From an uncultured Chloroflexia bacterium (GTDB lineage Bacteria > Chloroflexota > Limnocylindria > Limnocylindrales > CSP1-4): DNA of 64,000 nucleotides. This document shows positions 6,808 to 47,013 of this stretch, piece by piece (positions within the stretch are counted from its first letter, which is position 1; every line of letters starts with the position of its first letter). The notes below the pieces were generated by a model. The model did not search any database and had not been told where the DNA came from. It saw only the letters and a program-made list of their open reading frames with translations. The stretch spans positions 1 to 64,000 of the forward strand of contig CAVVYR010000019.1 in assembly GCA_963752475.1 (NCBI GenBank). Reading direction: 5' to 3'. The position numbers and the translations under genes are program-made.

Positions 6808-7434
6808 CTAGCTCAGCAGGTCCTGGGCCACGACCGCGGCGGTGGCGGCATCCTTGGCAAAGCCGTCGGCCCCGATCTCGGCCGCGAACTCGTCGGTCAC
6901 CGGCGCGCCGCCCACGAGGATCTTGGCCTTGGGATCAGCCGCGCGCACGGCCTCGACGGCCGCCTTCATGCCCACCATCGTGGTCGTCAGCAGGGCGCTG
7001 ATGCCGACCACGTCGGCCTTGTGCTCCTTGACGCCCTCGGCGAAGGCCTCGGGGGCCACGTTGGTGCCAAGGTCGACGATGGCGAAGTTGGCGCCCTTGA
7101 GCATCATGCCCACGAGGTTCTTGCCGATGTCGTGGAGGTCGCCCTGGACGGTGCCGATGACCGCGGTGTGGGCGGGCTTCACGCCCGAGGCCGCGAGCAG
7201 CGGCTCGATGAGCGCGGTGGCCTCCTTCATCGCGTGCGCGGCGATGAGCATCTCGGGCACGTACACGCCCTCGTTGCAGGCGAACTTGCGTCCCACCTCG
7301 GTCATGGCCGCGGTCATCGAGTCGAGGATCTCGCCGGGCGCGACGTCCTCGTCGATCGCGGCCTGCGTGAGGCTCACGGCCTCAGCACGGTTGCCCGCCT
7401 CCACGGCGGCGGTCAGAGCGGAAAGGTCGGCCAT
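6808..7434 (-). CDS. corrinoid (B12-binding) methyl-carrier protein, MtaC/MttC-like
   Basis: GDLHDIGKNLV (DxHxxG), SALLTTT, VGGAP, N-terminal cap domain. Confidence 0.93.
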   Translation of the reverse strand: MADLSALTAAVEAGNRAEAVSLTQAAIDEDVAPGEILDSMTAAMTEVGRKFACNEGVYVPEMLIAAHAMKEATALIEPLLAASGVKPAHTAVIGTVQGDLHDIGKNLVGMMLKGANFAIVDLGTNVAPEAFAEGVKEHKADVVGISALLTTTMVGMKAAVEAVRAADPKAKILVGGAPVTDEFAAEIGADGFAKDAATAAVVAQDLLS

Positions 7435-7467
7435 CTTCTGGTCCCTCCTCCTACAGATGATGGTCGG

Positions 7468-9171
7468 CTAGAACAGGCCGACCGGCTTGCCGTTCTCGTC
7501 GATGTCGACGTTGTTCCCGGCGGGCTGGCTGGGCAGGCCTGGCATGGTACGCATGTCGCCTGCGAGTGGATAGATGAATCCTGCACCTGCCGCCAGTTTG
7601 ACGTCTCTGATCGGGACGCGGAAGCCGGTCGGGCGGCCCAGGAGCGTGGGGTCATGTGAGATCGACAGGTGCGTCTTGGCCATACACACCGGCAACTCAC
7701 TGTAGCCGAGCTGATCGTACAGGGCCAGCGCCTTGGTGGCCGCGGGGGCGAGATCCACGCCGTCGGCACCGTAGGCCTTGACCGCGATGGTCTCGATCTT
7801 CTCGGGCAGCGACATGTCGTCGGGGTACAGCAGCTGGAAGTCGGACTCCTCTTCGCAGGCATCCCAGACGGCCGCCGCGAGGGCTTCGGAGCCTGCGCCA
7901 CCGTCGGCCCAGTGAGTGGTCACGACAGCGTCGCGAGCGCCGGCCGCGAGGGCCACCTCGCGGATGGCCTCGAACTCCGACTCGGCATCGCCAGGGAAGG
8001 CGTTGATGGCCACGACCACGGGAACGCCGTAGCCTCGCACCATCTCGATGTGCGCGGCAAGGTTTTCGCCACCGACCCGCACGGCCTCGGGGTTCTCCTC
8101 GAGGAGCGCCGGGTCGAGCGGCTTGCCGGCCACGATCCTGCCCACGCCGCCGTGCATCTTCAGGGCCCGGACGGTGGCCACGACGACCGCGCAGTCGGGC
8201 GCCATGCCCGACGCGCGGCACTTGATGTCGAAGAACTTCTGGGCGCCCATGTCGGCGCCGAAGCCAGCCTCGGTGACGACGATGTCGGAGGTGGCCAGGG
8301 CCACGCGGTCGGCCAGGATGGAGCTGTTGCCGTGAGCGATGTTGGCGAAGGGCCCGGCATGGACGAAAGCCGGTCCACCCTCGAGCGTCTGCAGCAGGTT
8401 GGGCTTGATGGCGTCGAGCAGGAGCACGGTCATGGCGCCTGCGACCTGCAGGTCCTCTGCGGTCACAGCCGAGCCATTGCGGTCGGTGGCCATGACGATG
8501 CGTCCCAGCCGCGCCCGCAGGTCGAAGACGTCGGTGGCCAGCGCGAGGATGGCCATGACCTCCGAGGCCACGGTGATGACGAACTCGCTCTCGCGGGGCA
8601 CACCGTTGATCTTGCCGCCGAGGCCGATGTTGACCTTGCGCAGGGCGCGGTCGCTGATGTCGACGACGCGGGGCCAGCGGATGGAGAAGGGGTCGATGTC
8701 GAGCGGGTTGCCGTGGTGCAGGCTGTTGTCGAGGAAGGCGGACGCGAGGTTGTGGGCGGCACCGATGGCGTGCACGTCACCGGTGAGGTGGAGGTTGAAG
8801 TCCTCCATCGGGATGACCTGGCTGTAGCCGCCGCCGGCCGCGCCGCCCTTGATGCCGAAGACCGGCCCCAGCGACGGCTGGCGGATGGCCACCGCGGCCT
8901 TGTGACCGATGCGGTTGAGGCCCTGCACCACGCCCACGGTGGTGGTCGTCTTGCCCTCACCCAGCGGGGTCGGCGTGATGGCGGTCATGACCACGTACTT
9001 GCCGCGCGGGTTCTCCTGCTCGACACGCTCGAGGCCCTCGAGCGTGACCTTGGCCTTGGTCGTGCCGTAGGACTCGATCTCATCGGGGCGCAGGCCGAGC
9101 TCGGCGGCGATGTCGGCGATCGGCCGCGGTGTCACCGAACGGGCGATGTCGAGGTCGGTCATGGCGGTCAT
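7468..9171 (-). CDS. fhs: formate--tetrahydrofolate ligase
   Basis: TPTPLGEGKTT, GIKGGAAGGGY, HAGPFANIAHG, MPGLP; start reassigned to ATG at 9171. Confidence 0.97.
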   Translation of the reverse strand: MTAMTDLDIARSVTPRPIADIAAELGLRPDEIESYGTTKAKVTLEGLERVEQENPRGKYVVMTAITPTPLGEGKTTTTVGVVQGLNRIGHKAAVAIRQPSLGPVFGIKGGAAGGGYSQVIPMEDFNLHLTGDVHAIGAAHNLASAFLDNSLHHGNPLDIDPFSIRWPRVVDISDRALRKVNIGLGGKINGVPRESEFVITVASEVMAILALATDVFDLRARLGRIVMATDRNGSAVTAEDLQVAGAMTVLLLDAIKPNLLQTLEGGPAFVHAGPFANIAHGNSSILADRVALATSDIVVTEAGFGADMGAQKFFDIKCRASGMAPDCAVVVATVRALKMHGGVGRIVAGKPLDPALLEENPEAVRVGGENLAAHIEMVRGYGVPVVVAINAFPGDAESEFEAIREVALAAGARDAVVTTHWADGGAGSEALAAAVWDACEEESDFQLLYPDDMSLPEKIETIAVKAYGADGVDLAPAATKALALYDQLGYSELPVCMAKTHLSISHDPTLLGRPTGFRVPIRDVKLAAGAGFIYPLAGDMRTMPGLPSQPAGNNVDIDENGKPVGLF

Positions 9172-9187
9172 CGGGTGTTCTCCTGGG

Positions 9188-10078
9188 CTAGCTGGTGCGA
9201 ACCGACGGCGCGCCCACCGCGATCTGGCGGGTGGCCTGGTCGCGCGCGGCACGCATGAGGTGGGTGAGCAGGATGGCGTTGGTCAGCGGCCCCACGCCGC
9301 CGGGAACGGGGGTGATGGCGCTGGCGACTTCCGCGGCCGACTCGAAGTGCACATCGCCGACCAGCTGGTCGTCCACGACGTTGATGCCGACGTCGACGAC
9401 CACGGCCCCGTCCTTGAGCATCGAGCCGGTGACCATCTCGGCCCGGCCGATGGCCACGATGACCACGTCCGCCTCGCGCAGCACGGCCGGCAGGTCCCTG
9501 GTGCGCGAGTGGCAGGTGGTGACCGTGGCGTTCTCCCGCAGCAGCAACTGGGCGGCGGGCTTGCCGATGACGTTGGAGCGACCGACCACGACCGCGTGGG
9601 ACCCTTCCAGCTCGACACCCGAGCGCTTGAGCAGCTCGACCGAGGCATGCGCGGTGGCCGGCAGGTAGCCCTCGTAGCCGAGCGCGAGCAGGCCGGCGTT
9701 CAAGGGATGGATGCCGTCGATGTCCTTGCGCGGATCGAGTGTGTCAAGGACCACGCGCAGGGGGATGCAGTCGGGCAGGGGCTGCTGGACGATGATGCCC
9801 GCGACCCCCTGCTCGGCACCCAGGGCCTCGATGGTCCGGGCCAGCTCCGTTTCGGTGCAGTCACCCTCGAGCTCGACGAGCCGGCCGCCGATGCCGACCT
9901 TCTCGCAGCCCCTGAGGATGCGCTCGAGGTAGACCATCGACGGAGCGTCGGCCCCGGCCACCACGACGGCCAACTCGGGGGTGTAGTCGAACTCATCCTT
10001 GAAGGCGGCGACGTCGGCCGCCACGCCCTCGCGGATCTCGGCCGCGACGGGTCCACCCTTGAGCAGCTCAGCCGTCAT
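9188..10078 (-). CDS. folD: bifunctional methylene-THF dehydrogenase/cyclohydrolase
   Basis: KDIDG, VGRSNVIGKP, ITPVPGGVGPLT. Confidence 0.95.
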   Translation of the reverse strand: MTAELLKGGPVAAEIREGVAADVAAFKDEFDYTPELAVVVAGADAPSMVYLERILRGCEKVGIGGRLVELEGDCTETELARTIEALGAEQGVAGIIVQQPLPDCIPLRVVLDTLDPRKDIDGIHPLNAGLLALGYEGYLPATAHASVELLKRSGVELEGSHAVVVGRSNVIGKPAAQLLLRENATVTTCHSRTRDLPAVLREADVVIVAIGRAEMVTGSMLKDGAVVVDVGINVVDDQLVGDVHFESAAEVASAITPVPGGVGPLTNAILLTHLMRAARDQATRQIAVGAPSVRTS

Positions 10079-10104
10079 CGCTGGTCCCTCCTGCCGTTCC
10101 GAGC

Positions 10105-11142
10105 CTAGCTCAGCTCACCGGCTCGGAAGGCTTCGATGAACCCCATGCCGAAGGCGTCCTCGCCCGTCAACATCGCGCGGGCCAGCATGTAGGCCTTGGA
10201 GTCGCGGTCGGGGTTGAGCGCCGCGGCCACGTCGGCCACCGGGTCGATGATGCCGCTGTCCTGGCCGTTCTCGACGCACATATCGAGGAACGTGTCGGTG
10301 ATGATGCGGCGGGCCGGCAGGCCGAAGCTGATGTTGCTCACGCCGCCGGTGATGTGGATCTCGTCGCCGAAGCGCTCACGGATGGTGCGCACCGCATCGA
10401 GGTAGGCCTGGCCGGCCATGGGGTCGACGCCGATGGGGATGACCAGCGGGTCCACGTGCAGCGAGTCCTCGGGCAGGCCCTTCTCGAGCGCCATGCCGAT
10501 GATCTGCTCTGCCCGCTCGACACGGTCCTGTGTGCCCGAGGGCATCGAGGCGCCGGTGCATGAGAGCACGACCGGCGTGCCGCGCTCCTTGACCAGGTCG
10601 AGCACGTCGGGGCGCTCGGTCGAGGCGGAGTTGATCATGGGCGTGGCACCGTCGGCCCAGGCAGGATCGATGGCGTCGAGGCCAGCTTCGAGCACGGCCG
10701 CGTCAGAAGAGTCGATCGACAGCGGCACGCTCGAGACGGGGCCGACGGCGGCCACCAGCCACTTCATGGCGTCGAGGCGACCGTCCACGTCTGAGCTGAT
10801 CTCATCGACGTTGAGATCGAGGTAGTCGGCACCGCCGGCGATCTGACGCTGGGCCATCCAGGCCACGTAGCGGGCCGCCACATCCGCCTCCGTGCCACCC
10901 GCAAGGCCCTGCCTGACCGCGGCCATCACGTGCTTGATGCGCTCGCTGGAGGTGAACTCCTTCGATCCGAGGATGGAGTCGGGGAGGGGGACCCACGACT
11001 CACCGTCCCCGTCGGGGAAGCGCACACCCGGGCGACCGTCGGGAGCGACGCCGCCACGGATGCCCTCGCGCTTGACGATGCGGCTGCAGTGGATGTTCTC
11101 GCCGATGATGATGAACTCGGTGCCACCTGCGGCCGTCTTCAT
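10105..11142 (-). CDS. methyltetrahydrofolate:corrinoid methyltransferase (AcsE/MetH pterin-binding domain)
   Basis: IIGENI, GADYLDLNV, LSIDSS, VDPLV, GGVSNISFGLP; own RBS (AGGAGAGG) and ATG overlapping the upstream TGA. Confidence 0.88.
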   Translation of the reverse strand: MKTAAGGTEFIIIGENIHCSRIVKREGIRGGVAPDGRPGVRFPDGDGESWVPLPDSILGSKEFTSSERIKHVMAAVRQGLAGGTEADVAARYVAWMAQRQIAGGADYLDLNVDEISSDVDGRLDAMKWLVAAVGPVSSVPLSIDSSDAAVLEAGLDAIDPAWADGATPMINSASTERPDVLDLVKERGTPVVLSCTGASMPSGTQDRVERAEQIIGMALEKGLPEDSLHVDPLVIPIGVDPMAGQAYLDAVRTIRERFGDEIHITGGVSNISFGLPARRIITDTFLDMCVENGQDSGIIDPVADVAAALNPDRDSKAYMLARAMLTGEDAFGMGFIEAFRAGELS

Positions 11143-12627
11143 GTTTCCTCTCCTTGGTTCTCTCGGGCGTAGTGATCGCGCCCCAGGAACGTGTTGGCCC
11201 AGGCGCTGGTGCCGCGCAACGCGTTGTCCTGGAGGACCGGTGCACGGTCGAGCATGGTCATGGCCTCGTCGTACGGACGGAGGCGGTCGTAGGCGACGGC
11301 CCAGACGCAGGGCTTGCCGGGCACCTCGCATTCGCCGTCGATGGAGCCGCCGCAGGGGCCGTTGCGCTGGTTCTTGGCGCAGGCGCCCTCGGGGCACTGG
11401 TAGGCGATGTCCGGCAGCGAACAGTCGCCGCAGTCCTTGCAGTCGAACATCGGCACCTTGACGGCCTGCTCCAGGACGTGGGCGGGCCACATCAGGCGGG
11501 TCTTCTCGAGCGTGCCGTACGACCTTCGCGCCCATCGTGAAGCCCCGCGACCCGGGCTCGAAGGCGACGTCGTGCACGAGGCGATTGAAGCGGTACCAGA
11601 GGGGCACGCGCTTGGTCTTGGTCGGGGGCGTCGGAACGGCCGAGGCCAGCTGCGGCAGATCACCCTGCTCGTACATGCGGTAGGGCTCGGCCTCGGGGAA
11701 GTGGATGTCCGGGAGCACGGCCTGCCAGTCCTGCTGGAACTCGTTAGCCATGCTCAGGACCTTGTCGATCTCACCGGCATTGCGCTGGCCGGCGATGTAG
11801 GCACCGGCGTAGCCCATGCCACGCACCACGGCGACCTGCTTGGCCGCGAACTCGAGGAAGGCGGCACGGCCCTTGTCGTCGGCCCCGGCCTGCTCCTCGG
11901 CCCAGGCCATCTGCGCCTCGCTCAGGCGGATGCCCGGGACACCGTCCCGATGGAAGACCTTGGCCACGCCCTTGGAGAGGACGTAGATCGAGGCCATCAG
12001 CGGGATGGGGCGCAGCTGTTCGCGGTTCCACTGCAGCAGCTCCGACCACGAGCGCGTGTCGTAGCCGACCTGGGTGATGGCGACGTCGGCGCCGGCCCGG
12101 ATCTTCATGGCCAGCTTGAGGTACTGCGGCACGAGGTCCGCCTCGACGGCCTTGAAGGGGTTGATGGCGCAGCCGATGGTGAAGCCGGGGCCGGTGCTAC
12201 CGGCGTCGCGCAGCATCGAGATGAGCCCGACCGAGTCGATGTCGAAGACCGCCCGCGAGCGGCCGCCGAAGCCTTCCTTGGGGTAGTCACCAGAGAGCGC
12301 GAGGGTGTTGGTCAGGCCCTCGCTGGCCAGCCCGTAGACGGTCGACTGGAGGGCGGCGCGGCTGCGATCGCGGCAGGCGAGGTGGACCACGCACTCACCA
12401 CCCATGCCCTGGATGGCCTGGCCCAGGGTGAGCGGGCCGAGCCGGACGAAGCCGCCGGCGTTGTCGGTGACGGTGAGGGCCGTGACACGCTCGTCGGCGA
12501 TGAGTTCACGGGCGGTCTCGCGGTGGCGCTCGCCGGCCTCGTCCTGAAGGGGACCGGCCCACGGCACGAGCTCCACGAGGGTGGTGCTGCCGTCGTCGCG
12601 CGCGAGTGATTCCGCGAACTTGCCCAT
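11139..12627 (-). CDS. metF: methylene-THF reductase with C-terminal Cys-rich MetV-like domain; apparent +1 frameshift at ~11520
   Basis: TVTDNAGG, HLACRDRS, LSGDY, ITQVGYD; second frame gives CKDCGDC...NGPCGG...CEV...CVW; removing one base restores GAKVYGTLEK. Confidence 0.85.
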
Positions 12628-12690
12628 CGATCCTCCATCCTGCGAGAGCCACTTGGCTCAGGCTGGAAGGTATCGTTCCCGGTCACGCAC

Positions 12691-12704
12691 GTCAACCGGT
12701 TGAC
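12691..12704. promoter_or_regulatory. candidate LacI-family operator
   Basis: perfect palindrome GTCAACCGGTTGAC between divergent metF and lacI-type genes. Confidence 0.65.
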
Positions 12705-12765
12705 CAACAAAGGGTCCGGATGGCACGGTAGGGACGTCCGAACGGACTTCCGGAGCAGGGGAACG

Positions 12766-13785
12766 ATGGCGCGAGGAACCGGCAGAGCGACGATCACGGA
12801 CGTGGCCCGCGAGGCCGGCGTCGACCGTGCCGTGGTGTCCAAGGTGCTCTCGGACGATCCCGGTTTGCGGGTGCGCGATGAGACGCGTGAACGCGTCCGG
12901 GCTGCTGCCGCCGCGCTCGACTACCGGCCCAACTTCCACGCTCGTGGCCTCGCTCGTGCACGCGCCGGCGCCCTGGGCCTGTTGGTGCCGGCAGGGGATC
13001 CGCTGATGGTGCCGGTCATCGCCGGCGCAGAGGAGGCGGCGGACGAGCGGGGCCTGCTGCTGTGGACCGCGCACCACGACGGGGAGCTGACCGAACGCTC
13101 CCTGCGTCTGCTGCAGAGCGGGGCCGTCGATGCGGCGCTGGTGGCCGGCCTGCGCGCGGGCTATCACGCCGATGCGCTGCTGCGCGACCCGCGCGTGCCC
13201 ACGCTGCTGGTCGACCGACGCACCGTGGGTTCCGATCGCTGGATCATCGTCGACGACGAGGGAGCCGCCCGCGTCGCGACCGAGCACCTCATCGCTCAGG
13301 GCCACACGCGCATCGGCTGGGCCGGCGGCCGAGCCGGTGTCGATACCGCCCAGCGTCGAGCCAACGGCATCCGCGATGCCATGGCCGCGGCTGACCTCTG
13401 GCTCGACCCGTCGTGGGTCGTGGCCGCCGACTACACCCCCACCGGTGGTGCCAGGGCCGTGGCCGAGATCCTGCAGAGCGAGGTGCGCCCCACGGCCATC
13501 GTGGCCGCCGATCCCAACGAGGCGCTTGGCGCCTGGCACGAGCTGGAGCGACACGGGTTGCGCGTGCCGGATGACATCTCGCTCGTGGCCATCGGGAAGC
13601 TGCCCGCGGAGGACTACCGCGTGGACCCGCTCACCTGCGTCGAGATGCCGCTGAATCGTTTGGGCCGCCTGTCGGTGGAGCTCGTGCTCGACAACCCCTG
13701 GGACCGGCCCATCCGCGAGGTCCTCGCCGATGGCTTCGTCATCTCCGACGGCGCCACGGCCGCACCGCCTCGGGAGGGAGTCTAG
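12766..13785 (+). CDS. LacI family transcriptional regulator
   Basis: TITDVAREAGVDRAVVSKVL, YRPNFHARGL, LRVPDDISL. Confidence 0.95.
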   Translation: MARGTGRATITDVAREAGVDRAVVSKVLSDDPGLRVRDETRERVRAAAAALDYRPNFHARGLARARAGALGLLVPAGDPLMVPVIAGAEEAADERGLLLWTAHHDGELTERSLRLLQSGAVDAALVAGLRAGYHADALLRDPRVPTLLVDRRTVGSDRWIIVDDEGAARVATEHLIAQGHTRIGWAGGRAGVDTAQRRANGIRDAMAAADLWLDPSWVVAADYTPTGGARAVAEILQSEVRPTAIVAADPNEALGAWHELERHGLRVPDDISLVAIGKLPAEDYRVDPLTCVEMPLNRLGRLSVELVLDNPWDRPIREVLADGFVISDGATAAPPREGV

Positions 13786-20229: not shown

Positions 20230-20348
20230 CTTCCGTGTCTCTCCAGCACTGATGAACGGAGTGGGTGCCGCGAGGCGGACCCGCTTGGGGCCAATCGCGC
20301 CTCGCGGTCACCACGACGAGCGTTTGGACGCTCGCTAGGAAGCCTGTC

Positions 20349-25595: not shown

Positions 25596-25605
25596 AAGCC
25601 TGGGC

Positions 25606-30387: not shown

Positions 30388-30405
30388 CCGCTAGGCTCGC
30401 ACGCC

Positions 30406-32517: not shown

Positions 32518-32519
32518 GG

Positions 32520-33707: not shown

Positions 33708-33724
33708 GTGTTCGGTCCCCCTTC

Positions 33725-34357: not shown

Positions 34358-34402
34358 GGTTCGGTTCCTCCCTCTCGCGCGCGTCTCCGCGTGGCCTTGG
34401 TC

Positions 34403-35494: not shown

Positions 35495-35502
35495 GGCGTG
35501 GA

Positions 35503-36348: not shown

Positions 36349-36376
36349 GCTGGGCTGCTCTCCTCCCCGTGCGGCC

Positions 36377-37678: not shown

Positions 37679-37731
37679 GGTCGTCCCTCCTGCTCAGTGG
37701 TCGTCGGTGCGTGTTCGGCGTCGTTGAAGCG

Positions 37732-38826: not shown

Positions 38827-38865
38827 CGCCGGCGCCTCGTCAGCCCGCTTCCTGCGCCAAGCGTC

Positions 38866-39805
38866 CTAGCCCTTGACCGCGCCGACGACGGCACCGCGCA
38901 TGAGGTAGCGCTGGGCGGCGATGAAGAGGATGAACAGCGGGATGATGGTGAGCGTGGTAGCCAGGGCCAGCTGTGGCAGCCACATCTTCACGGCCAGGCC
39001 GGTGGAGGTCGAGGGGTCGAAGATGGGGCTCGCGCCGATGAGCTGCTGCAGGCCGACCGACAGCGGGCGCTGGTCCGACAGCGGCAGCATCACCAGCGGC
39101 AGGAAGTAGTTGGTCCAGTTGGCCACGAAGCTGAAGAACACCACCAGCGCCACGGCCTGCTTGGCCAGCGGCGCGGCGATCCTGACGAAGATCGAGACGT
39201 CCGACGAGGCCGTCGATGCGCGCGGCCTCGATGAGCTCGCGAGGCAGGGTCGTCAGGAAGTGGATGTAGGAGAGGTACACGCCGAAGGGATAGAAGGCCA
39301 TGATGACGATGACCGACCAGAGCTCGCCGATGCTGAACATGGGCAGCACCTTCCCGATGGCGCTGAACTCCAGGAAGATGGGGATGACCAGCACGGTGTT
39401 GGGCATGACCATCGTCAGCAGCGTCACGAAGCGCAGCACGGAGCGGCCGGGGAAGCGCAGCTTGGCGATGGCGTAGCCCGCGGGCACCGCGGACACGACC
39501 GCCAGCAGCGTGGCCGTCGTGGCGATGACGATGGAGTTGCCGAACCAGGTCGTGAAGATGCCGCTGTTGAAGGCGAGGACGGTCTCCCAGTTGCGGATGA
39601 CGTTGTCCAGCGACAGACCCGACAGCGAGTAGACGCTCTCCACGACCCGGCCGTTGTCCGCCTCCTGGCGGAACGACAGCAGCATGAAGGTCACGATAGG
39701 CACGGCGAAGACCAGCGCCATCAGCGCGAGCGTGCCCACGCGCACGAGCCGTCCGGAGGTCCAGGCCTGGCCGGCGTGACGCGCGGAGTCGTTGTCGGTG
39801 CTCAT
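38866..39805 (-). CDS. carbohydrate ABC permease (MalG type); apparent frameshift at ~39205
   Basis: ELIEAARIDG EAA motif; the shifted frame continues IFVRIAAPLAK...FVANWTNY...QRYLMRG. Confidence 0.88.
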
Positions 39806-39817
39806 CGGGGTCGCATC

Positions 39818-40738
39818 TCAGGCGTGCTCCGTGTCCGCGAACAGCCCGCTGCGCTCGATGACGATGAGGCCGATGGCGAGGGAGATGCCCAGCAGCAAGA
39901 CGGCCATGGCCGCCGCCGCGGGCGTGTCCAGGATCTGGAAGGCGTACGTGTAGCTGAGCTGGTTGGGGCTCCATTGCGGTGATATCTGGCCGGCCGTGAC
40001 TGCCGAGAGGACCTGCACTTCGATGAAGAGCTGGAAGCCATAGGCCACGTTGAGCAGCGCCATGTAGCCGATCCAGGGCCGGATGATGGGCAGCTGGATG
40101 CGCCAGGCGATGGCGACCTTGCCGGCACCATCCACGGTGGCCGCTTCCATGACTTCCTCGTTGATGCCGTTGAGGCCGCCATTGACGATGACCAGCCAGG
40201 TGCCCGCACCCTGCAGGAACAGGATCCCGGTGAGGATCACGGGCATGTGCTGCGGCTGCGCCACCTGGTTGATGTTGGTGTAGCCCAGGAAGTCCCAGAG
40301 CGGGTCGATCGGGCTCTGCCCGGGATTCATGATGAAGAGCCAGAGCACGATGTTGGCGATGCCCGCGAGTGCACCCGGCATGTAGTAGAGGAAGCGCATG
40401 CTCGAGCCGTAGCGGCCCGGGCTGTTGTAGACGAGCAGCGCCAGACTCACGACGCCGATCATCATCACCGGGATCCACACCGCCAGCGTGGTCAGGATGT
40501 GGATGAAGGTGTCGGCGAAGCGGAAGTCGCTGATGATGCGCTCGTAGGCCGAGAAGCCGAAGCCTCCGCCCCGCTCCTGCAGGCTGATGTAGATGCCGTA
40601 GAGCATCGGGATGATGCCTGCGATCAACAGCAGGAAGCTGAACGGCGCGATGAGGATGAAGGCGGCACGGACCTCGGCCCACAGAGGGGACCGCGGGCGC
40701 AGGCTTCGCCTTCGGTTGGTCGCGGTGGAGACGCTCAT
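39818..40738 (-). CDS. carbohydrate ABC permease (MalF type)
   Basis: EAATVDGA EAA motif, multiple transmembrane segments. Confidence 0.92.
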   Translation of the reverse strand: MSVSTATNRRRSLRPRSPLWAEVRAAFILIAPFSFLLLIAGIIPMLYGIYISLQERGGGFGFSAYERIISDFRFADTFIHILTTLAVWIPVMMIGVVSLALLVYNSPGRYGSSMRFLYYMPGALAGIANIVLWLFIMNPGQSPIDPLWDFLGYTNINQVAQPQHMPVILTGILFLQGAGTWLVIVNGGLNGINEEVMEAATVDGAGKVAIAWRIQLPIIRPWIGYMALLNVAYGFQLFIEVQVLSAVTAGQISPQWSPNQLSYTYAFQILDTPAAAAMAVLLLGISLAIGLIVIERSGLFADTEHA

Positions 40739-40885
40739 GCTCGCTCGTGATGCGCCGATGAACGGATGGTGAGGCCGCGCAGAACGGCGAACCCCATCCG
40801 GTGTCGGTGAGGATGGGCGTCAGGGACGCCCGGATCGACGCTGGGGTGTGGCGACGCCATGCCGGGGCACGGCGTCGCCGATCAC

Positions 40886-42229
40886 CTACTCGTCCTCGTC
40901 GACGACCTCGTAGCCGAAGGTCTTGGCCTCGTTGATGAGCTGGTTGCTGAACGCATCCCACGCCTCACCAAGGGTGCCTTCGCCGGTCAGGACCGGGGTC
41001 ACGGTCTGCTGCCAGATGCCACCGGTGTTGTAGAGCATGTAGGCGAAGTCGCCGCGGACACGCTCGCCCGCGTCGATGAAGGCCTCTGCCAGTCCGTCGA
41101 AGTCGGCGAAGTAGCCGTCGGCTTCGGCCTTCTCCAGCCACTCAGCCTGGACCGGACCGTAGGCGGGCATGCCGGTGGAGAGCTCCACCTGCCAGCGCGG
41201 GTCGCCGGTCACGAACTTGAGGAACTCGAGGGTGTTCTCGAGCTGCTCGCCGGTGATGTGGGTCGAGACCGACCACAGACCGCCGCCCTCGTTGCCAGTG
41301 AAGCCGGGGTCCTCGTCGGCCCAGCGCAGGGCCTTGGCTGCGGTCATCTCGCCGGCCGGGATCTGCCACGTGTCGCGGAACAGGAAGTTGCCCCACCACA
41401 GGGCACCCGGGCTCATGACCAGGTCGGGACCGACCTCCGGCGCCTCGGGGCCGAAGATGCCCGCGGGCGTCATCGCGCCACCGTCGATCATCTCGTCGAC
41501 CAGCTCGACGACGCGCGTGCAGCGCTCGTCGGTCGGGTCGATGTGGACCTTGGTCTCTGAGATGCGGTCGTTGGTCGGGCAACCGGAAGCCCACAGATAG
41601 CGGGACGGGGCGTAGACGTCACCGAGGAAGCCCGAGATCCTGCCCGGGTGCTCTTCCGCGATCTGGATGCCGAGGTCGCGGTACTCCTCCCACGTCTCGG
41701 GCGCGGCGTAGCCGTTCTCGTCGAAGAAGGCCTTGTTGTACCAGAGCACATCGGGAGCCTGGTCGTTGCGCGCGCAGCGCACGCCGCCATCGATGTTGCA
41801 GATGCCGTTGGCGCCCTCGGAGTAGCCCTCGAGGTACTCGGGGATGTCCTGGGACAGGTCACGTGCGTAGTCGATCTGCGAGCTGGTGGCCCAGGCGATG
41901 TCGTCGTTGGAGGGGAAGAAGATGGCGTCCGGCCAGCCTTCTCCCGCCTGGTTGAAGAGCGCGAACTGCTGCTGCAGCGTGGCGTCCGTGCCGATCTGCG
42001 CGATCTGGTTGATCTCGATCTCGATCTCCGGATAGAGCTCCTTGAAGAGCTCTGCCGCGGGCACGCGGGGCGGGTCTACCCAGACCATGATGGGGCCACC
42101 GGAGTCGGTAGCGTCGGGGCTTTCCTGGCCGCCCTGCGCCAGGGTCGCACTCGCGCTGGTCGCTGCCAGCAGCAACGCCAGGGAGCCTCCCGTCACGAGG
42201 CGCAGTGAGCTCTTGTGGAACGAACCCAT
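40886..42229 (-). CDS. extracellular solute-binding protein (CUT1 carbohydrate type)
   Basis: GGAGG RBS, signal peptide, LWYNKAFF..PETWEE. Confidence 0.88.
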   Translation of the reverse strand: MGSFHKSSLRLVTGGSLALLLAATSASATLAQGGQESPDATDSGGPIMVWVDPPRVPAAELFKELYPEIEIEINQIAQIGTDATLQQQFALFNQAGEGWPDAIFFPSNDDIAWATSSQIDYARDLSQDIPEYLEGYSEGANGICNIDGGVRCARNDQAPDVLWYNKAFFDENGYAAPETWEEYRDLGIQIAEEHPGRISGFLGDVYAPSRYLWASGCPTNDRISETKVHIDPTDERCTRVVELVDEMIDGGAMTPAGIFGPEAPEVGPDLVMSPGALWWGNFLFRDTWQIPAGEMTAAKALRWADEDPGFTGNEGGGLWSVSTHITGEQLENTLEFLKFVTGDPRWQVELSTGMPAYGPVQAEWLEKAEADGYFADFDGLAEAFIDAGERVRGDFAYMLYNTGGIWQQTVTPVLTGEGTLGEAWDAFSNQLINEAKTFGYEVVDEDE

Positions 42230-42330
42230 AGAACTTCCTCCCAAGGTCGTGGCCTGCCGGCCACCTGTCGGTCCCGACGTCTTCTCCTCCGCACCGGGAC
42301 GGCCGCAGGTTAGACCTCATCAGGGGCGGC

Positions 42331-42346
42331 TTGTCAACGTTGATAA
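42331..42346. promoter_or_regulatory. candidate LacI-family operator
   Basis: near-palindrome TTGTCAACGTTGATAA with perfect core TCAACGTTGA, in the divergent promoter. Confidence 0.6.
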
Positions 42347-42461
42347 CGATATCTAGGGCCTCAAGTGGCGGATAAATACATACCGCGGCACCGTCCTTTC
42401 AGCCGACTGAACAAGCTCGGACCTCTATCCACGCTTGAAACGGCTCGCTATACTCCCGCCC

Positions 42462-43151
42462 ATGGCTGAACAAACGAATGTTCACGACCCGGAGCTGCGC
42501 TTCGAGGACGTGCCGGGGAAGATCGGTGAGCGACTGACCAGCGCCATGGTCTCGGATTCGCTCGATGCGTCGGGGGTCCGTGGCCAGGTCATGGACGCAC
42601 GCATCGGCCCTGTGACGTCCGGTTCGCGGGCGGTCGGGCGGGCTCGAACCGTCTGCTTCGAGCCGAATGACCGGGACAGCGACGATCCCTACGGCGCAGC
42701 CATGGACTTCATCGACTCGCTCGGCCCCGGCACGGTCGCGGTCATCGCCACCGGCGGGGATGAGCGAACGGCCTACTGGGGCGAGCTCTTCAGCGCCTCG
42801 GCCAAGGGCCACGGGGCCGTGGGCACGGTCTGTGACGGACCCGTGCGCGACGTGGCCAAGGTGCGCCAGGTCGGCTACGACCTCTTCGCGCCGTCGTTCC
42901 GGCCGCTCGACTATCGTGCCCGGATGTACGTCACGAGCATGGCCCAGCCGGTCGAGTGCGGCGGCGTTCCCGTCGCGCCCGATGACCTCGTCTTCGCTGA
43001 CGAGGACGGCGTGGTGGTCGTGCCTCAAGCCGCGGAGGCAGAGGTGCTGGCACGCGCCATCGACCGAGCGACAGCGGAGAGCAACGTGCTCGAGGAGCTG
43101 CTCGGCGGTGCCAGCCTGCGTGAGGTCTGGGAGCGTTGGCACGTCCTGTGA
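42462..43151 (+). CDS. RraA / HMG-CHA aldolase family protein
   Basis: VSDSLD, AYWGEL, DGPVRD, FADEDGVVVVP. Confidence 0.85.
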   Translation: MAEQTNVHDPELRFEDVPGKIGERLTSAMVSDSLDASGVRGQVMDARIGPVTSGSRAVGRARTVCFEPNDRDSDDPYGAAMDFIDSLGPGTVAVIATGGDERTAYWGELFSASAKGHGAVGTVCDGPVRDVAKVRQVGYDLFAPSFRPLDYRARMYVTSMAQPVECGGVPVAPDDLVFADEDGVVVVPQAAEAEVLARAIDRATAESNVLEELLGGASLREVWERWHVL

Positions 43152-43447
43152 ACGGAGCGACGGATCCTCGTCTGCTGCTGCTTGCCGACGGTGACAACGT
43201 GCTCATCACCACGACCTCCATCCGGGCCGGTGAGACGCTAAGCGTGGATGGTCAGCCCGTGGACCTGGCGGTCGACGTGGCCCTCGGCTTCAAGGTGGCC
43301 GCTGCCGACCTCGCCGAGGGCACCACGGTCGTGCGCCTGGGCATGCCCATCGGCCGGACCACGGCTGGCGTGGCACGTGGCGAGGTCATCCACACCCACA
43401 ACCTCGAGAGCCTGTACATGCGTACCCACGCGCGAGGAGAGCAGTGA
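43148..43447 (+). CDS. SAF-domain protein (UxaA/GarD dehydratase small subunit)
   Basis: DNV, GFKVA, GMPIG, GEVIHTHNL. Confidence 0.85.
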   Translation: MNGATDPRLLLLADGDNVLITTTSIRAGETLSVDGQPVDLAVDVALGFKVAAADLAEGTTVVRLGMPIGRTTAGVARGEVIHTHNLESLYMRTHARGEQ

Positions 43448-44668
43448 TGGAGCTCACCGGCTACCTGCGCTCCGATGGGCGCAAGGGCATCCGCAACGTC
43501 GTCGCAGTGGCCTATCTCGTGGAGTGCGCGCATCACGTCGCGGGCCGCATCGGCGCGGGTATGGAGGACGACGTCCACGTCATCGGCTTCGGTGGCTGCT
43601 ACCCCAACGACTACGCCGCCATGATGCTCGAGCGATTGACCACACATCCGAACGTGGGCGCGGTCTTGCTCGTGTCGCTCGGCTGTGAGGGTTTCGACCG
43701 CGCCGAGTTGGCTCGGGCCATCGCGGCCTCTGGCCGACCCGTGGAGACACTGGTCATCCAGCAGGTCGGCGGCACGCGGGCGACGATCGAGGCCGGCCGC
43801 TCCTGGGTCAAGCAGGCGCGCGCAGCAGCTGGCCCGCCAGGAACGCGTGCCCATGGGCCTGGACGAGCTCGTCGTGGGCACCATCTGCGGTGGCTCCGAC
43901 AGCACCAGCGGCATCACTGCCAATCCGTCGGTGGGCCGGGCCTTCGAGAGTCTCGTGGATGCGGGCGCGGTGGCCATCTTCGAGGAGACCGGCGAGCTCA
44001 TCGGCTGTGAACACGCCATGGCCGAGCGCGCCATCACGCCCGAGCTGGGCCAGGAGCTCATCGACGCCGTGGAGAAGGCGGAGCGCTACTACACCACGCT
44101 GGGCCACGGCAGCTTCGCGGCCGGCAATGCCGAGGGTGGTCTCACCACCATCGAGGAGAAGTCACTCGGTGCCTACGCCAAGAGTGGCAGCGGGCCGATC
44201 CACGGGGTCATCAAGCCCGGCGACATCCCGCAGCACGGCGGCCTCTATCTGCTCGATGTCATCCCCGATGGCGAGGTCCGCTTCGGCTTCCCCAACATCA
44301 ACGACAACGCCGAGGCTGCCGAGCTCATGGCTTGCGGCGCCCACATGATCCTGTTCACCACCGGGCGTGGGTCGGTCGTGGGCAGTGCCATCAGCCCCAT
44401 CATCAAGGTCTGCGCCAACCCCGAGACGTACGCACGCATGTCCGAGGACATGGACGTCAACGCCGGCCGGATCCTCCATCGTGAGGCCAGCATCGACCAG
44501 GTCGGCGAGGAGATCTTCCAGCTCGCCCAGCGTGTCGCTGCCGGCGAGCCCAGCGCCAGCGAGGCCATGGGCCACCAGGAGTTCGTGCTGACGTACAAGA
44601 CGTTCGAGCCGGTCGGACCGGCCTGCCTGCCGTTGGTAGCGGCACCACCACCACCTGCGTCGGCCTAG
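43447..44668 (+). CDS. UxaA/GarD family sugar-acid dehydratase large subunit; apparent frameshift at ~43822
   Basis: [17 protein letters not shown], then [19 protein letters not shown] and FTTGRG in a shifted frame. Confidence 0.88.
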
Positions 44669-44678
44669 AGGAGGGGAG

Positions 44679-45137
44679 ATGCGAACGGTCGAGGAGTTCT
44701 TCGAGGACTACGAGATCGGCTTCGCCCGGGAGACCACCGGGCGCACGATGACCGAGGCCGACATCGTCTTGCATGCAGGGCAGACCGGCGACTTCTTTCC
44801 GCACCACATGGATGCCGAGTGGTGCGCCACGCAGCCGTTCGAGCGGCGCGTGGCACACGGCACGCTGGTGATGTCGATGGCCGTGGGCATGACTGCGGGT
44901 GACATCAATCCGCGGGCCATGAGCTACGGCTACGACCGCGTGCGCTTCGTAAGGCCGGTCCACATCGGCGACACACTCAAGGTGCGCGCGGAGATCACCT
45001 CCAAGTACGACCATAGGAAGCGCCCGGAGCAGCTGGGCATGGTCGAGGAAACGGTCACGGTCACCAACCAGGAGGCACAGGTCGTGCTCGTGCTGGTCCA
45101 CCTCTACGTGGTGGAGAAGCGCGGCGCGGCGGCCTGA
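44679..45137 (+). CDS. MaoC family hot-dog fold dehydratase
   Basis: [38 protein letters not shown]. Confidence 0.88.
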
Positions 45138-45151
45138 CAGCGGAGGGGAAG

Positions 45152-45475
45152 ATGCAACGACACGGACAGCTCATCGGGCTCGATCCCGAGCGGTACGACG
45201 AGTACGCCAAGGCCCACGCCGATGTGTGGCCGGGCGTGCTGGCGATGATCAAGGAGTGCAATATCCAGAACTACTCCATCTACCACCACGGCGGCATGCT
45301 CTTCGCCTACTTCGAGTACGTCGGTGACGACTTCGAGGCGGACATGGCCAAGATGGCGGCCGACCCCGAGACCCAGCGCTGGTGGGACTGGATGATGCCC
45401 ATGCAGCGGCCCCGCGAGGACCGGGCCGAAGGCGAATGGTGGCTCGAGATGAAGGAGGTCTTCCACCTCGACTGA
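45152..45475 (+). CDS. L-rhamnose/L-fucose mutarotase family (DUF718)
   Basis: EY..AHADVWP, NYSIY, LFAYFEY, EVFHLD. Confidence 0.88.
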   Translation: MQRHGQLIGLDPERYDEYAKAHADVWPGVLAMIKECNIQNYSIYHHGGMLFAYFEYVGDDFEADMAKMAADPETQRWWDWMMPMQRPREDRAEGEWWLEMKEVFHLD

Positions 45476-45548
45476 GCGTGTGATGTCGCCCGAAGGTCGG
45501 GTTCGTCGATGAGCGGGCACATCTGGCGCTTGCCGCCACGCGCCACGG

Positions 45549-46310
45549 TCAGTCGCCCCTGTACGACTCCGCAGGGACGGCCTTGACCACGTCATCGTCG
45601 TAACTCAAGGTGACAGCCTCGCCGGGCTTGATGACGAGGAAGTCCTCGTTCCACTCGCCGTCGAGCATCCGCTCGACGAGGCCCATGTCGCTGAGCACGG
45701 ACTCGAAGCGCCAGCCCCGGTCCTCCGTTTCTGTCTGTGCGCGTTCCTTGGCCACATCGTCGGGCGCCATACCGGTCTCGAGGAAGGCTCCGCGTGAGTA
45801 ATGCTGCTGCCAGTCGCCGAGCGCCTCCATGAGGTAGTCGGCGTTCTCCTGACCGTACTTCTCGACGTACTCATCGTACGTCGCCTTCACGCTGTTCGAT
45901 CGCTCCGAGCTGCCCAGGAGCGCGCCCATGAAGGCGTTGCCGCGCTTGACGTTGTCCTCGGTGAACCAGTACGTGCCCGGCGTCGACTCCTGCTCCTGCA
46001 TGTAGCGCTCGCGTGAGCCCAGGAAGATGGTCACGCAGTCGTGCGCCCGGGGCAGCACCAGCGGTACGCGCTTCGACTTGAGACCGCCGGTAGCGCCACC
46101 GCAGTACCCGTAGCCCAGGAGGATGGCGTCGACGTCGGGATCTTCGGCCTCGATGCGGTCGACGTGCTCCTGGATGAGGTCGCGCAGCGGCAGCGGCTCG
46201 TTGTGCAACGAGGCCGAGAGGTCGCTGATGACGATGTCGTGCGGCGACTCGGCTGCGAGCGTCTGCGCCGGCAGCATGAGCATGTCGCAGAGGAGGAGTT
46301 GGAGCCGCAT
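45549..46310 (-). CDS. DUF1638 domain protein
   Basis: SLHNEP, ILLGYGYCG, PRAHDCVTIFLGS, GTYWFT. Confidence 0.8.
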   Translation of the reverse strand: MRLQLLLCDMLMLPAQTLAAESPHDIVISDLSASLHNEPLPLRDLIQEHVDRIEAEDPDVDAILLGYGYCGGATGGLKSKRVPLVLPRAHDCVTIFLGSRERYMQEQESTPGTYWFTEDNVKRGNAFMGALLGSSERSNSVKATYDEYVEKYGQENADYLMEALGDWQQHYSRGAFLETGMAPDDVAKERAQTETEDRGWRFESVLSDMGLVERMLDGEWNEDFLVIKPGEAVTLSYDDDVVKAVPAESYRGD

Positions 46311-46320
46311 GCGTCGATCG

Positions 46321-47013
46321 CTACGCGGACGCGGAAAGCGTCTCGGGGTTGATGACGCCGTCAGCTTCGCGCTCGCCGCGGGCGGCCTCTACCACGGCCG
46401 TGGCCACGTGGACCGCGCTCGCGGCATCGGGCGCCCAGCCGTCGGCACCGATCTCCCTGGCGAACTCGAGCGTGACCGGGGCGCCACCGACGATGACGCT
46501 TACGTGCTTGAGGTCGTCGGCAGCGGCCACGGCCTCGGTGACCTGGCGCATGTTTCCCATCGTCGTGGTCAGCAGCGCGCTGCAGCCGATGATGTCGGCG
46601 TTGTGCTCACGAGCCGCAGCGAGGTACTCGTCGGCACTGGTGCTCGTGCCCAGGTCGATGACCTCGAAGTTGGCGCCCTTGAGCATCATGGCCACGAGGT
46701 TCTTGCCGATGTCGTGGAGGTCGCCCTTGATGGTGCCCAGCACGGCCACCTTGTCCGGCTTGTGACCGGAGCCGATGAGCAGCGGCTCGAGCAGCGCCAC
46801 CGCGCCCTTCATGGCACGCGCGCTGATGAGCATCTCGGGGACGAAGATCTCCTGCCGGCTGAAGCGCTCTCCGACCACGCCCATGGCCTCGGTCATGGGA
46901 TCGAGGATCGCGTGCGGATCGAGGCCTTCCTCGATCGCGCCTTGGGTGATCTCGACCGCGGTCTCGCGGTCACCGGCCTCGACGGCCGCCTGGAGTCGCT
47001 CGAAGTCTGCCAT
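46321..47013 (-). CDS. corrinoid (B12-binding) methyl-carrier protein
   Basis: EIFVPEML, GDLHDIGKNLV, SALLTTT, VGGAP. Confidence 0.93.
   Translation of the reverse strand: MADFERLQAAVEAGDRETAVEITQGAIEEGLDPHAILDPMTEAMGVVGERFSRQEIFVPEMLISARAMKGAVALLEPLLIGSGHKPDKVAVLGTIKGDLHDIGKNLVAMMLKGANFEVIDLGTSTSADEYLAAAREHNADIIGCSALLTTTMGNMRQVTEAVAAADDLKHVSVIVGGAPVTLEFAREIGADGWAPDAASAVHVATAVVEAARGEREADGVINPETLSASA

Follow-up and report, generated by a model that had tools for sequence, protein, structure and literature searches.

The first 64 kb of contig C19 of an uncultured Chloroflexia assembly (G000; 4.25 Mb in 38 contigs, 88.8% complete, 5.8% contaminated), hereafter the window, carry between positions 6808 and 47013 a set of genes that we read, with moderate confidence, as the hub of a three-component corrinoid-dependent demethylation system acting on methylated sugars. 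One part of this reading, the transfer of methyl groups by a corrinoid carrier system to tetrahydrofolate (THF) and onward to MetF, FolD and Fhs, is strongly supported: all parts are present, an activase is encoded in the genome, methionine synthase (MetH) is encoded separately, and in relatives the genes for UroD-family and corrinoid proteins (CoPs) run on into metF-MT2-folD-fhs. From gene context only, we infer that O-methyl sugars are the methyl donors, and likewise the direction of flux and the order of demethylation and sugar oxidation. The genes at the core of the system are the following (gene calls by third-position G+C (GC3), names by Pfam and NCBIfam; the window is ~68% G+C).

6808-7434 (-), CoP1, corrinoid protein, last gene of the metFV-MT2-folD-fhs operon (B12-binding 4.3e-26, B12-binding_2 1.3e-13)
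7468-9252 (-), Fhs, formate-tetrahydrofolate ligase (FTHFS 8e-252; NF010030 789 bits, above cut-off)
9188-10078 (-), FolD, methylene-THF dehydrogenase/cyclohydrolase (THF_DHG_CYH_C 5e-63, THF_DHG_CYH 1e-25)
10105-11142 (-), MT2, AcsE/MeTr-like methyl-corrinoid:THF methyltransferase of ~345 aa, start taken from an intact copy on contig C27 (Pterin_bind 7.4e-19; NF005719 178 bits, cut-off 259)
11139-12627 (-), MetF with a MetV-like C-terminal Cys-rich domain (PF12225), one base too many near 11522 (MTHFR 2.5e-17)
13821-15080 (-), UroD1, MtaA/UroD family, H-S-C motif, candidate substrate:corrinoid methyltransferase (URO-D 3.2e-21; mtaA_cmuA 52.6 bits, under cut-off)
22575-23747 (+), UroD2, MtaA/UroD family, H-N-D replacing H-x-C; the open reading frame (ORF) is longer than the gene given here, whose start was picked from the translation (URO-D 1.1e-23)
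32520-33707 (-), UroD3, MtaA/UroD family, H-G-C motif, candidate methyl-sugar:corrinoid methyltransferase (URO-D 2.1e-20)
33725-34357 (-), CoP2, corrinoid protein, 18 nt upstream of UroD3 (B12-binding 1.7e-27, B12-binding_2 1.2e-20)
36377-37678 (-), unk433, 433 aa, probably a very divergent UroD-fold protein, from a large family without annotation that shares the motif YYGCCEPL (no Pfam match)
45549-46310 (-), DUF1638, corrinoid-reactivation-associated, sole copy in the genome (PF07796 3.2e-36)
46321-47013 (-), CoP3, corrinoid protein, downstream of a polar-amino-acid-type importer (B12-binding 1.7e-27)

An earlier note on this DNA had counted three DxHxxG corrinoid proteins, and three there are: each of CoP1-3 combines a B12 cap with a Rossmann domain (B12-binding_2 and B12-binding; E 4e-26 to 2e-27), and their alignment shows GDLHDIGK (DxHxxG), SALLTTT and GG kept in all of them. 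The AcsE-like methyltransferase, metF(V)-folD-fhs and DUF1638 described in the same note were also found by Pfam and NCBIfam, with metF(V) broken by the extra base. Apart from FolP and MetH, the only Pterin_bind genes of the genome are MT2 and its C27 copy. An 840-aa ORF that would read as an MTHFR-MT2 fusion was rejected as a frameshift artefact of the extra base near 11522. Midway through this ORF the GC3 of its frame falls to 0.52-0.55 while that of another frame rises to 0.92-0.93, and the base is missing from the C27 copy and from 4/4 aligning related loci (L002, L012, L015, L018). On C27 the intact genes encode a 495-aa MetF (MTHFR plus PF12225) and a separate 345-aa MT2 that overlap by 4 nt; the extra base is either a sequencing error or the mark of a pseudogene.

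The genome's one RACo/RamA-type activase (Fer2, RACo_middle and RACo_C_ter) is encoded outside the window at C10:17195-18826, probably ~12 kb past the window's left end, since C10:1-5017 matches the reversed window 1-5017 (99.8% identical). DUF1638 has been tied to corrinoid reactivation in the available parts of PMC5764234 and PMC12478193. A full-length MetH (1308-aa ORF with S-methyl_trans, Pterin_bind and B12-binding domains) is encoded on contig C6, so the small CoPs are not required for methionine synthesis. Six small B12-binding ORFs are present in the genome, five of them of the methyltransferase-carrier type: the three of the window and two on C27, one beside two URO-D genes and the other a copy of CoP1. 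The sixth adjoins MeaB and probably belongs to a mutase.

A second corrinoid cluster lies on C27 (C27:42000-61900, locus L087). It contains GntR, URO-D, a CoP (95% to CoP1), a second URO-D (Pfam 204 bits) and a Rieske protein, and continues with a sugar substrate-binding protein (SBP), LacI, two CoA-transferases of family III, a CUT1-type importer and a P450.

To study the conservation of UroD3, we scanned one genome per species and found 135 relatives among 151 candidate stretches. Locus counts below refer to the best 80 of these 135 (L numbers), in which the window proteins were placed by tblastn: 18 close loci (≥80% identity to UroD3) and 62 distant ones (52-66%). In the close loci, a CoP lay within 1 kb of UroD3 in 16/18, a UroD1 orthologue within 3 kb in 12/18, and Fhs/FolD were found in 7/18. 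Nothing argues more strongly for a transfer of the methyl group to THF than loci L002-L005, L012, L013, L015 and L018, where the order LacI-GFO-CoP2-UroD3-UroD1-(metF/MT2)-folD-fhs forms one co-directional string, joining the genes for the candidate substrate-specific methyltransferases (MT1) and the carrier to the folate module.

We then asked what kind of enzyme UroD1-3 are. Their NCBIfam matches were to MtaA/CmuA/MtbA-type models only, and the hemE model did not match any of the three at E ≤0.001. A search of the genome with TIGR01464 gave 7 weak matches, none of them UroD1-3 and none above the cut-off; the reading thus survived the check for true HemE proposed earlier. Membership of the MtaA/CmuA family proper was not found either (TIGR01463 scores of 52.6, 38.5 and 32.7 bits against a cut-off of 235.4). 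The closest solved relative of UroD3 is MtaA (4ay7, E 9.5e-5), with FHGCGN of UroD3 aligned on LHICGN of MtaA. Across 28 UroD3 orthologues, H281, C283, E305 and the S-D-H364-S stretch are invariant, and the H364 column holds His or Cys in 7/7 UroD paralogues. UroD1 and UroD3 are predicted to carry a His-x-Cys zinc site of the MtaA type; the assignment of H364 as its distal ligand is a deduction, because the paralogue alignment left out MtaA. The UroD3 model (pLDDT 81) shows a UroD/MtaA barrel by Foldseek, which does not tell HemE from MtaA. The genome has 16 UroD-family matches, many of them beside sugar ATP-binding cassette (ABC), LacI and SDR genes.

A predicted complex of UroD3 with CoP2 fits the proposed methyl transfer. 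The model reached an ipSAE of 0.88 in 3/3 runs, with 0.00 for the best of 3 controls, a mark that is reached by 116/157 solved complexes and 2/215 mismatched pairs. The runs share ≥95% of contacts, and both partners have pLDDT ≥87. In the modelled interface, the cofactor face of CoP2 (98-106, 149-151, 176-178; DxHxxG/SALLTTT/GG) lies on the mouth of the UroD3 barrel, whose contributing residues (including 284, 307-308, 331-335 and 367-369) are beside C283, H364 and the putative metal site. Solved complexes of corrinoid proteins with TIM-barrel methyltransferases exist (MtaBC, CFeSP-MeTr), and the pass may therefore partly reflect likeness to them.

Four UroD/MtaA-fold proteins had been claimed for this region. 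Three are certain by Pfam URO-D, and the fourth, most likely unk433, is probable. By hhalign, unk433 showed no relation to the UroD3 family (probability 0.5% and 1.1%), and its profile found nothing meaningful among PDB sequences; the link to the UroD fold therefore comes from weaker evidence. A protein-language-model atlas places unk433 with 'putative URO-D' clusters at 0.97-0.99, the top 20 Foldseek matches of its low-confidence model (pLDDT 63) are all UroD structures (best E 2.5e-4), and 4/35 diverse relatives match PF01208. The family is large (2185 clusters at 50% identity, E ≤0.001) and uniform, the best 120 clusters all having ≥69% identity and nearly all 433 aa, and every source name given reads 'hypothetical protein'. 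Orthologues with 60-71% identity occur in Planctomycetota, Hydrogenedentota and Spirochaetota loci. W286, Y322 and E401 are invariant in the family and G-C-C-E (in YYGCCEPL) is near-invariant; unk433 may itself be a metal enzyme.

The corrinoid genes are embedded in genes for sugar import, oxidation and regulation. The further features are:

12700-13785 (+), LacI-family regulator with a palindrome at its start (LacI, Peripla_BP_3)
15176-15940 (-), SDR sugar/sugar-acid dehydrogenase (adh_short_C2 8e-55)
15973-16734 (-), GntR/FCD regulator (FCD, GntR)
16731-21509 (-), CUT2-type monosaccharide ABC importer, AraG/RbsA/GguA-like, with SBP 20349-21509, permeases 19237-20229 and 18245-19240, and double ATPase 16731 to ~18240 (Peripla_BP_4 1e-40, BPD_transp_2 twice, ABC_tran twice)
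21773-22528 (+), 251-aa protein of unknown function encoded upstream of UroD2 (no family at E 1e-5)
23741-24616 (-), Amidohydro_2 lactonase-like protein (Amidohydro_2 5e-52; L-fucono-1,5-lactonase model NF052480 215.9 bits, cut-off 400)
24786-25595 (+), SDR, first gene of a sugar-acid block (24786-31449) named by Pfam/NCBIfam
25606-27126 (-), ALDH, same block
27193-29158 (+), E1 alpha/beta, same block
29155-30387 (+), MR_MLE (enolase-superfamily) dehydratase, same block
30406-31449 (+), AKR, same block
31446-32523 (-), 7-bladed beta-propeller lactonase, the next gene downstream of UroD3 (C-terminal part: Lactonase 1.3e-43)
34403-35494 (-), GFO/IDH/MocA sugar dehydrogenase (Pfam)
35503-36348 (-), second Amidohydro_2 lactonase-like protein (Amidohydro_2 1e-46; NF052480 184.6 bits, under cut-off)
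37732-38826 (-), LacI-family regulator inside the operon (LacI, Peripla_BP_3)
38840-42244 (-), CUT1-type sugar ABC importer with permeases 38840-39805 and 39818-40738 and SBP 40886-42244 (BPD_transp_1 twice; weak carbohydrate-SBP matches)
42435-43151 (+), RraA-like aldolase, first gene of a divergent operon (42435-45475) (RraA-like 4e-33)
43248-43688 and 43685-44668 (+), UxaA-type dehydratase, divergent operon (GD_AH_C 7e-83)
44679-45137 (+), MaoC, divergent operon (1e-22)
45152-45475 (+), RhaM mutarotase, divergent operon (rhaM 7e-34)
47070-49817 (-), polar-amino-acid-type ABC importer (SBP_bac_3, permease, GlnQ-like and EhuA-like ATPase matches)

The earlier description of interleaved and partly co-operonic sugar genes was borne out, since two sugar ABC importers, a mutarotase, dehydrogenases, three lactonases, two dehydratases and an aldolase were all found by Pfam/NCBIfam. 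The minus strand from 42244 to ~31446 is taken up by a run of ten genes spaced 0-148 nt apart: SBP, two permeases, LacI, unk433, lactonase-like, GFO, CoP2, UroD3 and lactonase. The CUT1 operon is without an ATPase gene and is syntenic in L001 and L033. In L025, L038 and L043, orthologues of the E1 alpha and beta genes (50-54% identity) immediately precede UroD3. The 7-bladed lactonase is split across two frames (31446-32150 and 31819-32601), by an indel error or as a pseudogene, and none of the 80 related loci has a homologue of it next to UroD3. The 251-aa protein gave faint matches only, to cupin sugar isomerases (Lyx_isomer 0.064, MannoseP_isomer 0.21), and its orthologue adjoins UroD2 in L006.

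A perfect palindrome, GTCAACCGGTTGAC, lies at 12691-12704 at the start of the LacI gene and is no commoner in the window than expected by chance; it has the half-site GTCAAC in common with a palindrome at 42331-42346. Operator searches allowing ≤3 mismatches gave 3 and 4 matches, numbers reached by 21 and 23 of 100 shuffles, and with counts at chance level no LacI regulon can be claimed. Scanning 31400-47200 for promoters and terminators returned 0 promoter-like and 3 terminator-like sites, no excess over shuffles, and gives no guide to where the operons end. An Rfam scan of the whole window matched no family, and thus no B12 riboswitch was found there.

Outside the close relatives, the link between UroD3 and sugars was also present. 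The best 120 clusters of the UroD3 orthologue family have ≥66% identity, with named members from Verrucomicrobia, Akkermansiaceae, Rhodopirellula and Planctomycetota, and orthologues with 52-66% identity occur in at least 8 phyla. The distant loci come from Chloroflexota, Acidobacteriota, Planctomycetota, Verrucomicrobiota, Spirochaetota, Hydrogenedentota, Bacteroidaceae, Latescibacterota and one Eubacteriales metagenome-assembled genome (MAG). A RhaM homologue lay within 1.5 kb of UroD3 in 26 of the 62 distant loci (anywhere in the locus in 31/62), a UroD1 orthologue (≥50% identity) within 3 kb in 19/62, and another UroD paralogue was found in 37/62. GFO/IDH/MocA was present in 15/18 close and 9/62 distant loci. 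Pfam annotation of 25 distant loci (10 loci with 94 ORFs and 15 with 106 of the 245 ORFs listed) showed one or more carbohydrate genes near UroD3 in every locus; neighbours include RhaT, GH29, GH95, GH38, GH42, GH43, PL11, sulfatases, FucI and sugar ABC/LacI genes. This is exemplified by an Isosphaeraceae locus with the order RhaM-UroD3-GH38-RhaT-GH43-GH95, a Bacteroidaceae locus with sulfatases, UroD1-like, UroD3, RhaM, RhaT, DUF4450 and PL11, a Phycisphaerales locus with UroD3-RhaT-RhaM, and a Spirochaetota locus with L-fucose isomerase, a sugar ABC system and RhaM. A GH29 fucosidase adjoins UroD3 in five Acidobacteriota/Planctomycetota loci. Conservation of the sugar linkage in other genomes, put forward earlier as a check, was thus observed across phyla. 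With RhaM, RhaT, GH29, GH95 and FucI in its context, fucose/rhamnose-type sugars are our best guess for the substrate of UroD3.

Several other genes were seen in the loci of UroD3 orthologues. In five Chloroflexota loci a creatininase-family (PF02633) gene, which has no counterpart in the window, lies directly downstream (L025:6478-7212, L027:11194-11973, L029:11280-11750, L040:11212-11991, L043:11217-11945). A rhamnosyl O-methyltransferase/CmcI-family gene lies 4 kb away in a Solibacteraceae MAG (L024:4799-6046), as does a homocysteine S-methyltransferase gene in a Hydrogenedentes MAG (L019:8695-9666). In-frame ORFs of 731-755 aa that encode a full LacI regulator followed by URO-D were found in Anaerolineae/Caldilineae-type MAGs (L027:5092-7287, L031:1538-3787, L034:6042-8309), with ORFs of similar size in L036, L037 and L042. 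These could be regulators that sense through a UroD-like domain, or pairs of genes that ORF calling ran together.

In the mechanism we propose, the sugar ABC importers would bring in methylated carbohydrates, which in the case of UroD3 are most likely fucose/rhamnose-type 6-deoxyhexoses with O-methyl groups, and the RhaM-type mutarotase would equilibrate their anomers. The UroD-fold zinc enzymes (UroD1, UroD2, UroD3 and probably unk433) would act as substrate-specific MT1 and transfer the methyl group to Co(I) on CoP1-3; UroD1, UroD2 and unk433 may act at different positions or on different sugars. From the CoP the methyl group would pass to THF through the single AcsE-like MT2 and be oxidised to formate by MetF(V), FolD and Fhs, the last of which might yield one ATP. 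The RACo/RamA-type activase and DUF1638 would keep the cobalt reduced by repairing oxidised cobalt. The freed deoxyhexose would be processed by an AKR, GFO or SDR dehydrogenase, an Amidohydro_2 lactonase, an enolase-type or UxaA-type dehydratase and SDR or RraA-type steps, which we take to resemble the non-phosphorylative L-fucose/L-rhamnose routes.

A number of observations weigh against this reading. UroD1-3 score 33-53 bits against MtaA/CmuA models with cut-offs of 235-600, UroD2 is without the Cys of the motif (H-N-D), and unk433 is tied weakly to the UroD fold. A corrinoid protein was found in only 12 of the 62 distant loci and within 1 kb of UroD3 in 0/62, Fhs/FolD/MT2 were found in 0/62, and one of five distant genomes searched (G004) had no CoP match. 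Both metFV and the 7-bladed lactonase are frameshifted in the window. Because the C27 copy diverges after window position 13778, the way the C1 module adjoins the sugar operons is known for the C19 contig only, and this linkage could be one of two strain arrangements. Alkyl methyl ethers such as those of sugars are poorer leaving groups and harder to cleave than aryl ethers, which would make sugar demethylation chemically demanding. Lastly, CoP3 and DUF1638 are the last genes behind the polar-amino-acid-type importer (46321-49817 (-)), and the genome has a single MttB-family gene (PF06253; C6:91690-93093, none in the window); the hub may therefore also serve methylamines, and the substrate of the CoP3-DUF1638 pair may be an amine or amino acid carrying methyl groups, not a sugar. 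Of the earlier proposal of a demethylation system linked to THF methyl oxidation, the corrinoid-to-folate part stands on the parts found, the activase, the separate MetH and synteny, and its all-sugar part is weakened by this pair and by the few CoPs in distant loci.

The same observations bear on a first alternative, in which the corrinoid system is real and its donors are methoxylated aromatics, methanol from pectin, methyl halides, methylthio compounds or methylamines, the sugar genes being mere neighbours in a catabolic island. We consider this unlikely. In addition to the position of CoP3-DUF1638 and the MttB-family gene, it can draw on the H-x-C zinc site of the MtaA type, which is classically thiol-activating. 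The UroD-fold MT1 enzymes characterised in the accessible portion of PMC13222342 act on methoxy-aromatics or chloromethane. In contrast, the UroD3 and UroD1 operons have sugar-type ABC transporters only, with LacI/GntR regulators, and the window's Pfam matches include no aromatic catabolic genes. The partners of UroD3 across phyla are RhaM, RhaT, fucosidases, FucI and sugar ABC genes, and no aromatic-ring, methylamine or halide genes recur among them.

We judge it quite improbable that the UroD-like proteins are something other than corrinoid methyltransferases. They would then be UroD/MetE-clan decarboxylases, isomerases or hydrolases that act on deoxyhexose derivatives, either with zinc or without a cofactor, and the adjacency to CoPs in Limnocylindrales would be secondary. 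The 50/62 distant loci without a corrinoid protein in the examined stretch, and its absence within 1 kb in all 62, are what this explanation would lead one to expect, and the low scores against MtaA models and the failure of Foldseek to separate HemE from MtaA leave room for it. Against this stand the 18-nt gap between CoP2 and UroD3, their adjacency in 16/18 close loci, the continuation of the operon into metF-MT2-folD-fhs in relatives, the specific predicted docking of UroD3 on CoP2 with controls at zero, and the HxC motif that aligns with MtaA. Furthermore, the carriers of distant genomes may be encoded elsewhere: a stand-alone small CoP (44-50% identity to CoP2) was found in 4/5 distant genomes with UroD3 and no nearby CoP, adjoining DUF1638 and another UroD-like gene, or an MT2-like gene. 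Among 201 sampled Planctomycetota genomes, UroD3 was present in 4, all 4 with a small CoP, which overall occurs in 57/201; the probability of this co-occurrence is ~0.007 if genomes are taken as independent and kinship is ignored.

We rate it as very improbable, given the complete MetH on C6 and how many MT1 paralogues there are, that these genes form a split methionine synthase or an anabolic C1 route leading from formate through methyl-THF to methionine, like those of Phaeobacter and Ruegeria. In favour of this, the split MetH of P. inhibens comprises precisely such a set, with DUF1638, a small CoP, a pterin protein and a RamA-like protein (PMC5764234, available part), MtgC/MtgD are bidirectional in R. 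pomeroyi (PMC12478193, likewise) and Fhs, FolD and MetF are reversible. Against it, the genome has five methyltransferase-type small CoPs and 16 UroD-family matches, the operons are under LacI/GntR sugar-type regulators, and Pfam found no homocysteine methyltransferase gene in the window.

The host is a soil-type, aerobic-capable, Limnocylindrales-like Chloroflexota bacterium. The nearest UroD3 loci (82-93% identity) come from MAGs labelled Candidatus Limnocylindrales or uncultured Chloroflexia, and G000 encodes haem-copper oxidase subunit I. Despite this oxidase, the TIGR01464 search of G000 found no hemE over the curated cut-off, for which an incomplete MAG or another haem route may be responsible. 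C27:116-13900 is a 98.1% copy of window 1-13778 with the C1-module genes intact, the sequences diverging thereafter. Together with the C10 copy and the extra base near 11522, this suggests strain heterogeneity or duplication, plus probable indel errors. Between a DeoR regulator and CoP1 lies a 526-aa ORF (4923-6503 (+)) with coding-like GC3 (0.86) and no Pfam/NCBIfam match. In RNA libraries, 6-15% of sampled words were present in 5 runs from 2 studies. RNA contigs from 4 runs (~40-430 nt, mostly 92-99% alike) cover parts of UroD3, GFO, the lactonase-like gene and unk433 and pile up over the conserved DxHxxG stretch; they may derive from relatives or DNA carry-over.

Methylated sugars such as 2-O-methyl-fucose, 2-O-methyl-xylose, O-methyl-rhamnoses and 6-O-methyl-galactose are common in plant, algal and microbial glycans and stall ordinary sugar catabolism. 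Extending the sugar-demethylation reading beyond this genome, we put forward as a tentative but real possibility that the UroD1, UroD3 and unk433 families are the substrate-specific MT1 enzymes of a widespread O2-independent, B12-dependent sugar O-demethylation. It would act in at least 8 phyla of glycan degraders on fucose/rhamnose-type ethers from plant, algal and microbial glycans and pass the methyl group to folate C1 metabolism, with the chain from importer to formate lying here in one 40-kb region. If true, this would explain the use of methylated sugars under scarce oxygen or without formaldehyde production, imply a new demand for vitamin B12 in the glycan-degrading communities of soil, sediment and gut, and give a function to several very large conserved families now called 'hypothetical' or mis-named 'uroporphyrinogen decarboxylase'. 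The window is a useful exemplar because MT1, carrier, MT2, MetF(V), FolD, Fhs and DUF1638 all lie among sugar importers and sugar-acid enzymes. Such a system is seemingly new. A literature search that left out most subscription journals and supplements found nothing that joins corrinoid or cobalamin methyl transfer with methylated sugars, and no published enzyme for O2-independent demethylation of methylated sugars was found.

Compared with known systems, the proposed one is not a member of the MtaA/CmuA equivalogs, of HemE or of the MttB-based systems. MtaA, the methylcobamide:CoM methyltransferase (PDB 4ay7/4ay8), is the best solved match of UroD3 (E 9.5e-5) and has the same fold and the H-x-C-G-N motif, but the two are only ~15-16% identical and MtaA is an MT2 of methanogens that acts on a thiol acceptor. 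The CmuA/CmuB chloromethane pathway of aerobic methylotrophs (metF2-folD-purU) resembles the window in its MtaA-like MT1, corrinoid domain, pterin MT2 and oxidation to formate through MetF and FolD. Unlike in the window, CmuA fuses the MT1 to the corrinoid domain, PurU frees formate without ATP gain, the substrate is a methyl halide and there are no sugar genes.

For methylated sugars, the only demethylase in the literature searched, as far as the text available to us goes, is the O2-dependent cytochrome P450 for 6-O-methyl-D-galactose of marine Bacteroidota (PMC6292453, PMC9400963). Like the proposed system, it takes the methyl ether off the sugar so that ordinary catabolism can proceed; in contrast to it, the P450 depends on O2, releases formaldehyde and belongs to an unrelated family, and Pfam found no P450 in the window. 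The mlp gene clusters of Kountz and Balskus (PMC10418091) were considered and rejected as a counterpart, since in the part available they concern the methyl-sulfur/selenide metabolism of anaerobes and differ in layout.

Aerobic corrinoid demethylation with metF2, RamA and DUF1638 is documented for MtgBCD of Ruegeria (PMC12478193). According to the accessible sections of that paper and of PMC5764234 (RamA and DUF1638), the MtgBCD(E) glycine-betaine demethylase/split methionine synthase of Roseobacters shares with the window an aerobic host, a small CoP, a pterin methyltransferase beside a metF paralogue, C1 oxidation on THF, DUF1638 and a RamA-like activase. A CoP and a pterin methyltransferase beside metF are indeed present here, with DUF1638 and a RamA-type activase in the genome. 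The MT1, in contrast, is of the MttB family (PF06253) there and of the UroD family in the window, which has no MttB-type MT1. Further differences are the separate full MetH of the window's genome, folD and fhs in the same operon, and CoP/MT1 pairs embedded in sugar operons.

UroD-fold MT1 enzymes are documented in acetogens, and the accessible account in PMC13222342 allows a comparison. Like the window, Odm/Vdm/Mtv of acetogens and Desulfitobacterium and CdmBCA of Acetobacterium dehalogenans combine a UroD-fold MT1, a DxHxxG CoP, a THF MT2 and an ATP-dependent activase, and the methyl group ends on THF. Their substrates are aryl methyl ethers or chloromethane, whereas the context in the window is carbohydrate, and the window's MT1 families (UroD1, UroD3, unk433) are distinct and unannotated. 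CdmB showed no metal in that account, whereas UroD1 and UroD3 have the MtaA-like His-x-Cys site. The window's host has a haem-copper oxidase and not the acetogenic pathway, and the methyl group is proposed to be oxidised via Fhs here instead of being fed to acetyl-CoA synthase. Set beside these systems, the window and its genome hold the parts of a three-component system, namely small CoPs, a UroD-fold MT1 beside its CoP, a Pterin_bind MT2 (below the cut-off) and, outside the window, a RACo/RamA activase, among which methyl transfer is predicted.

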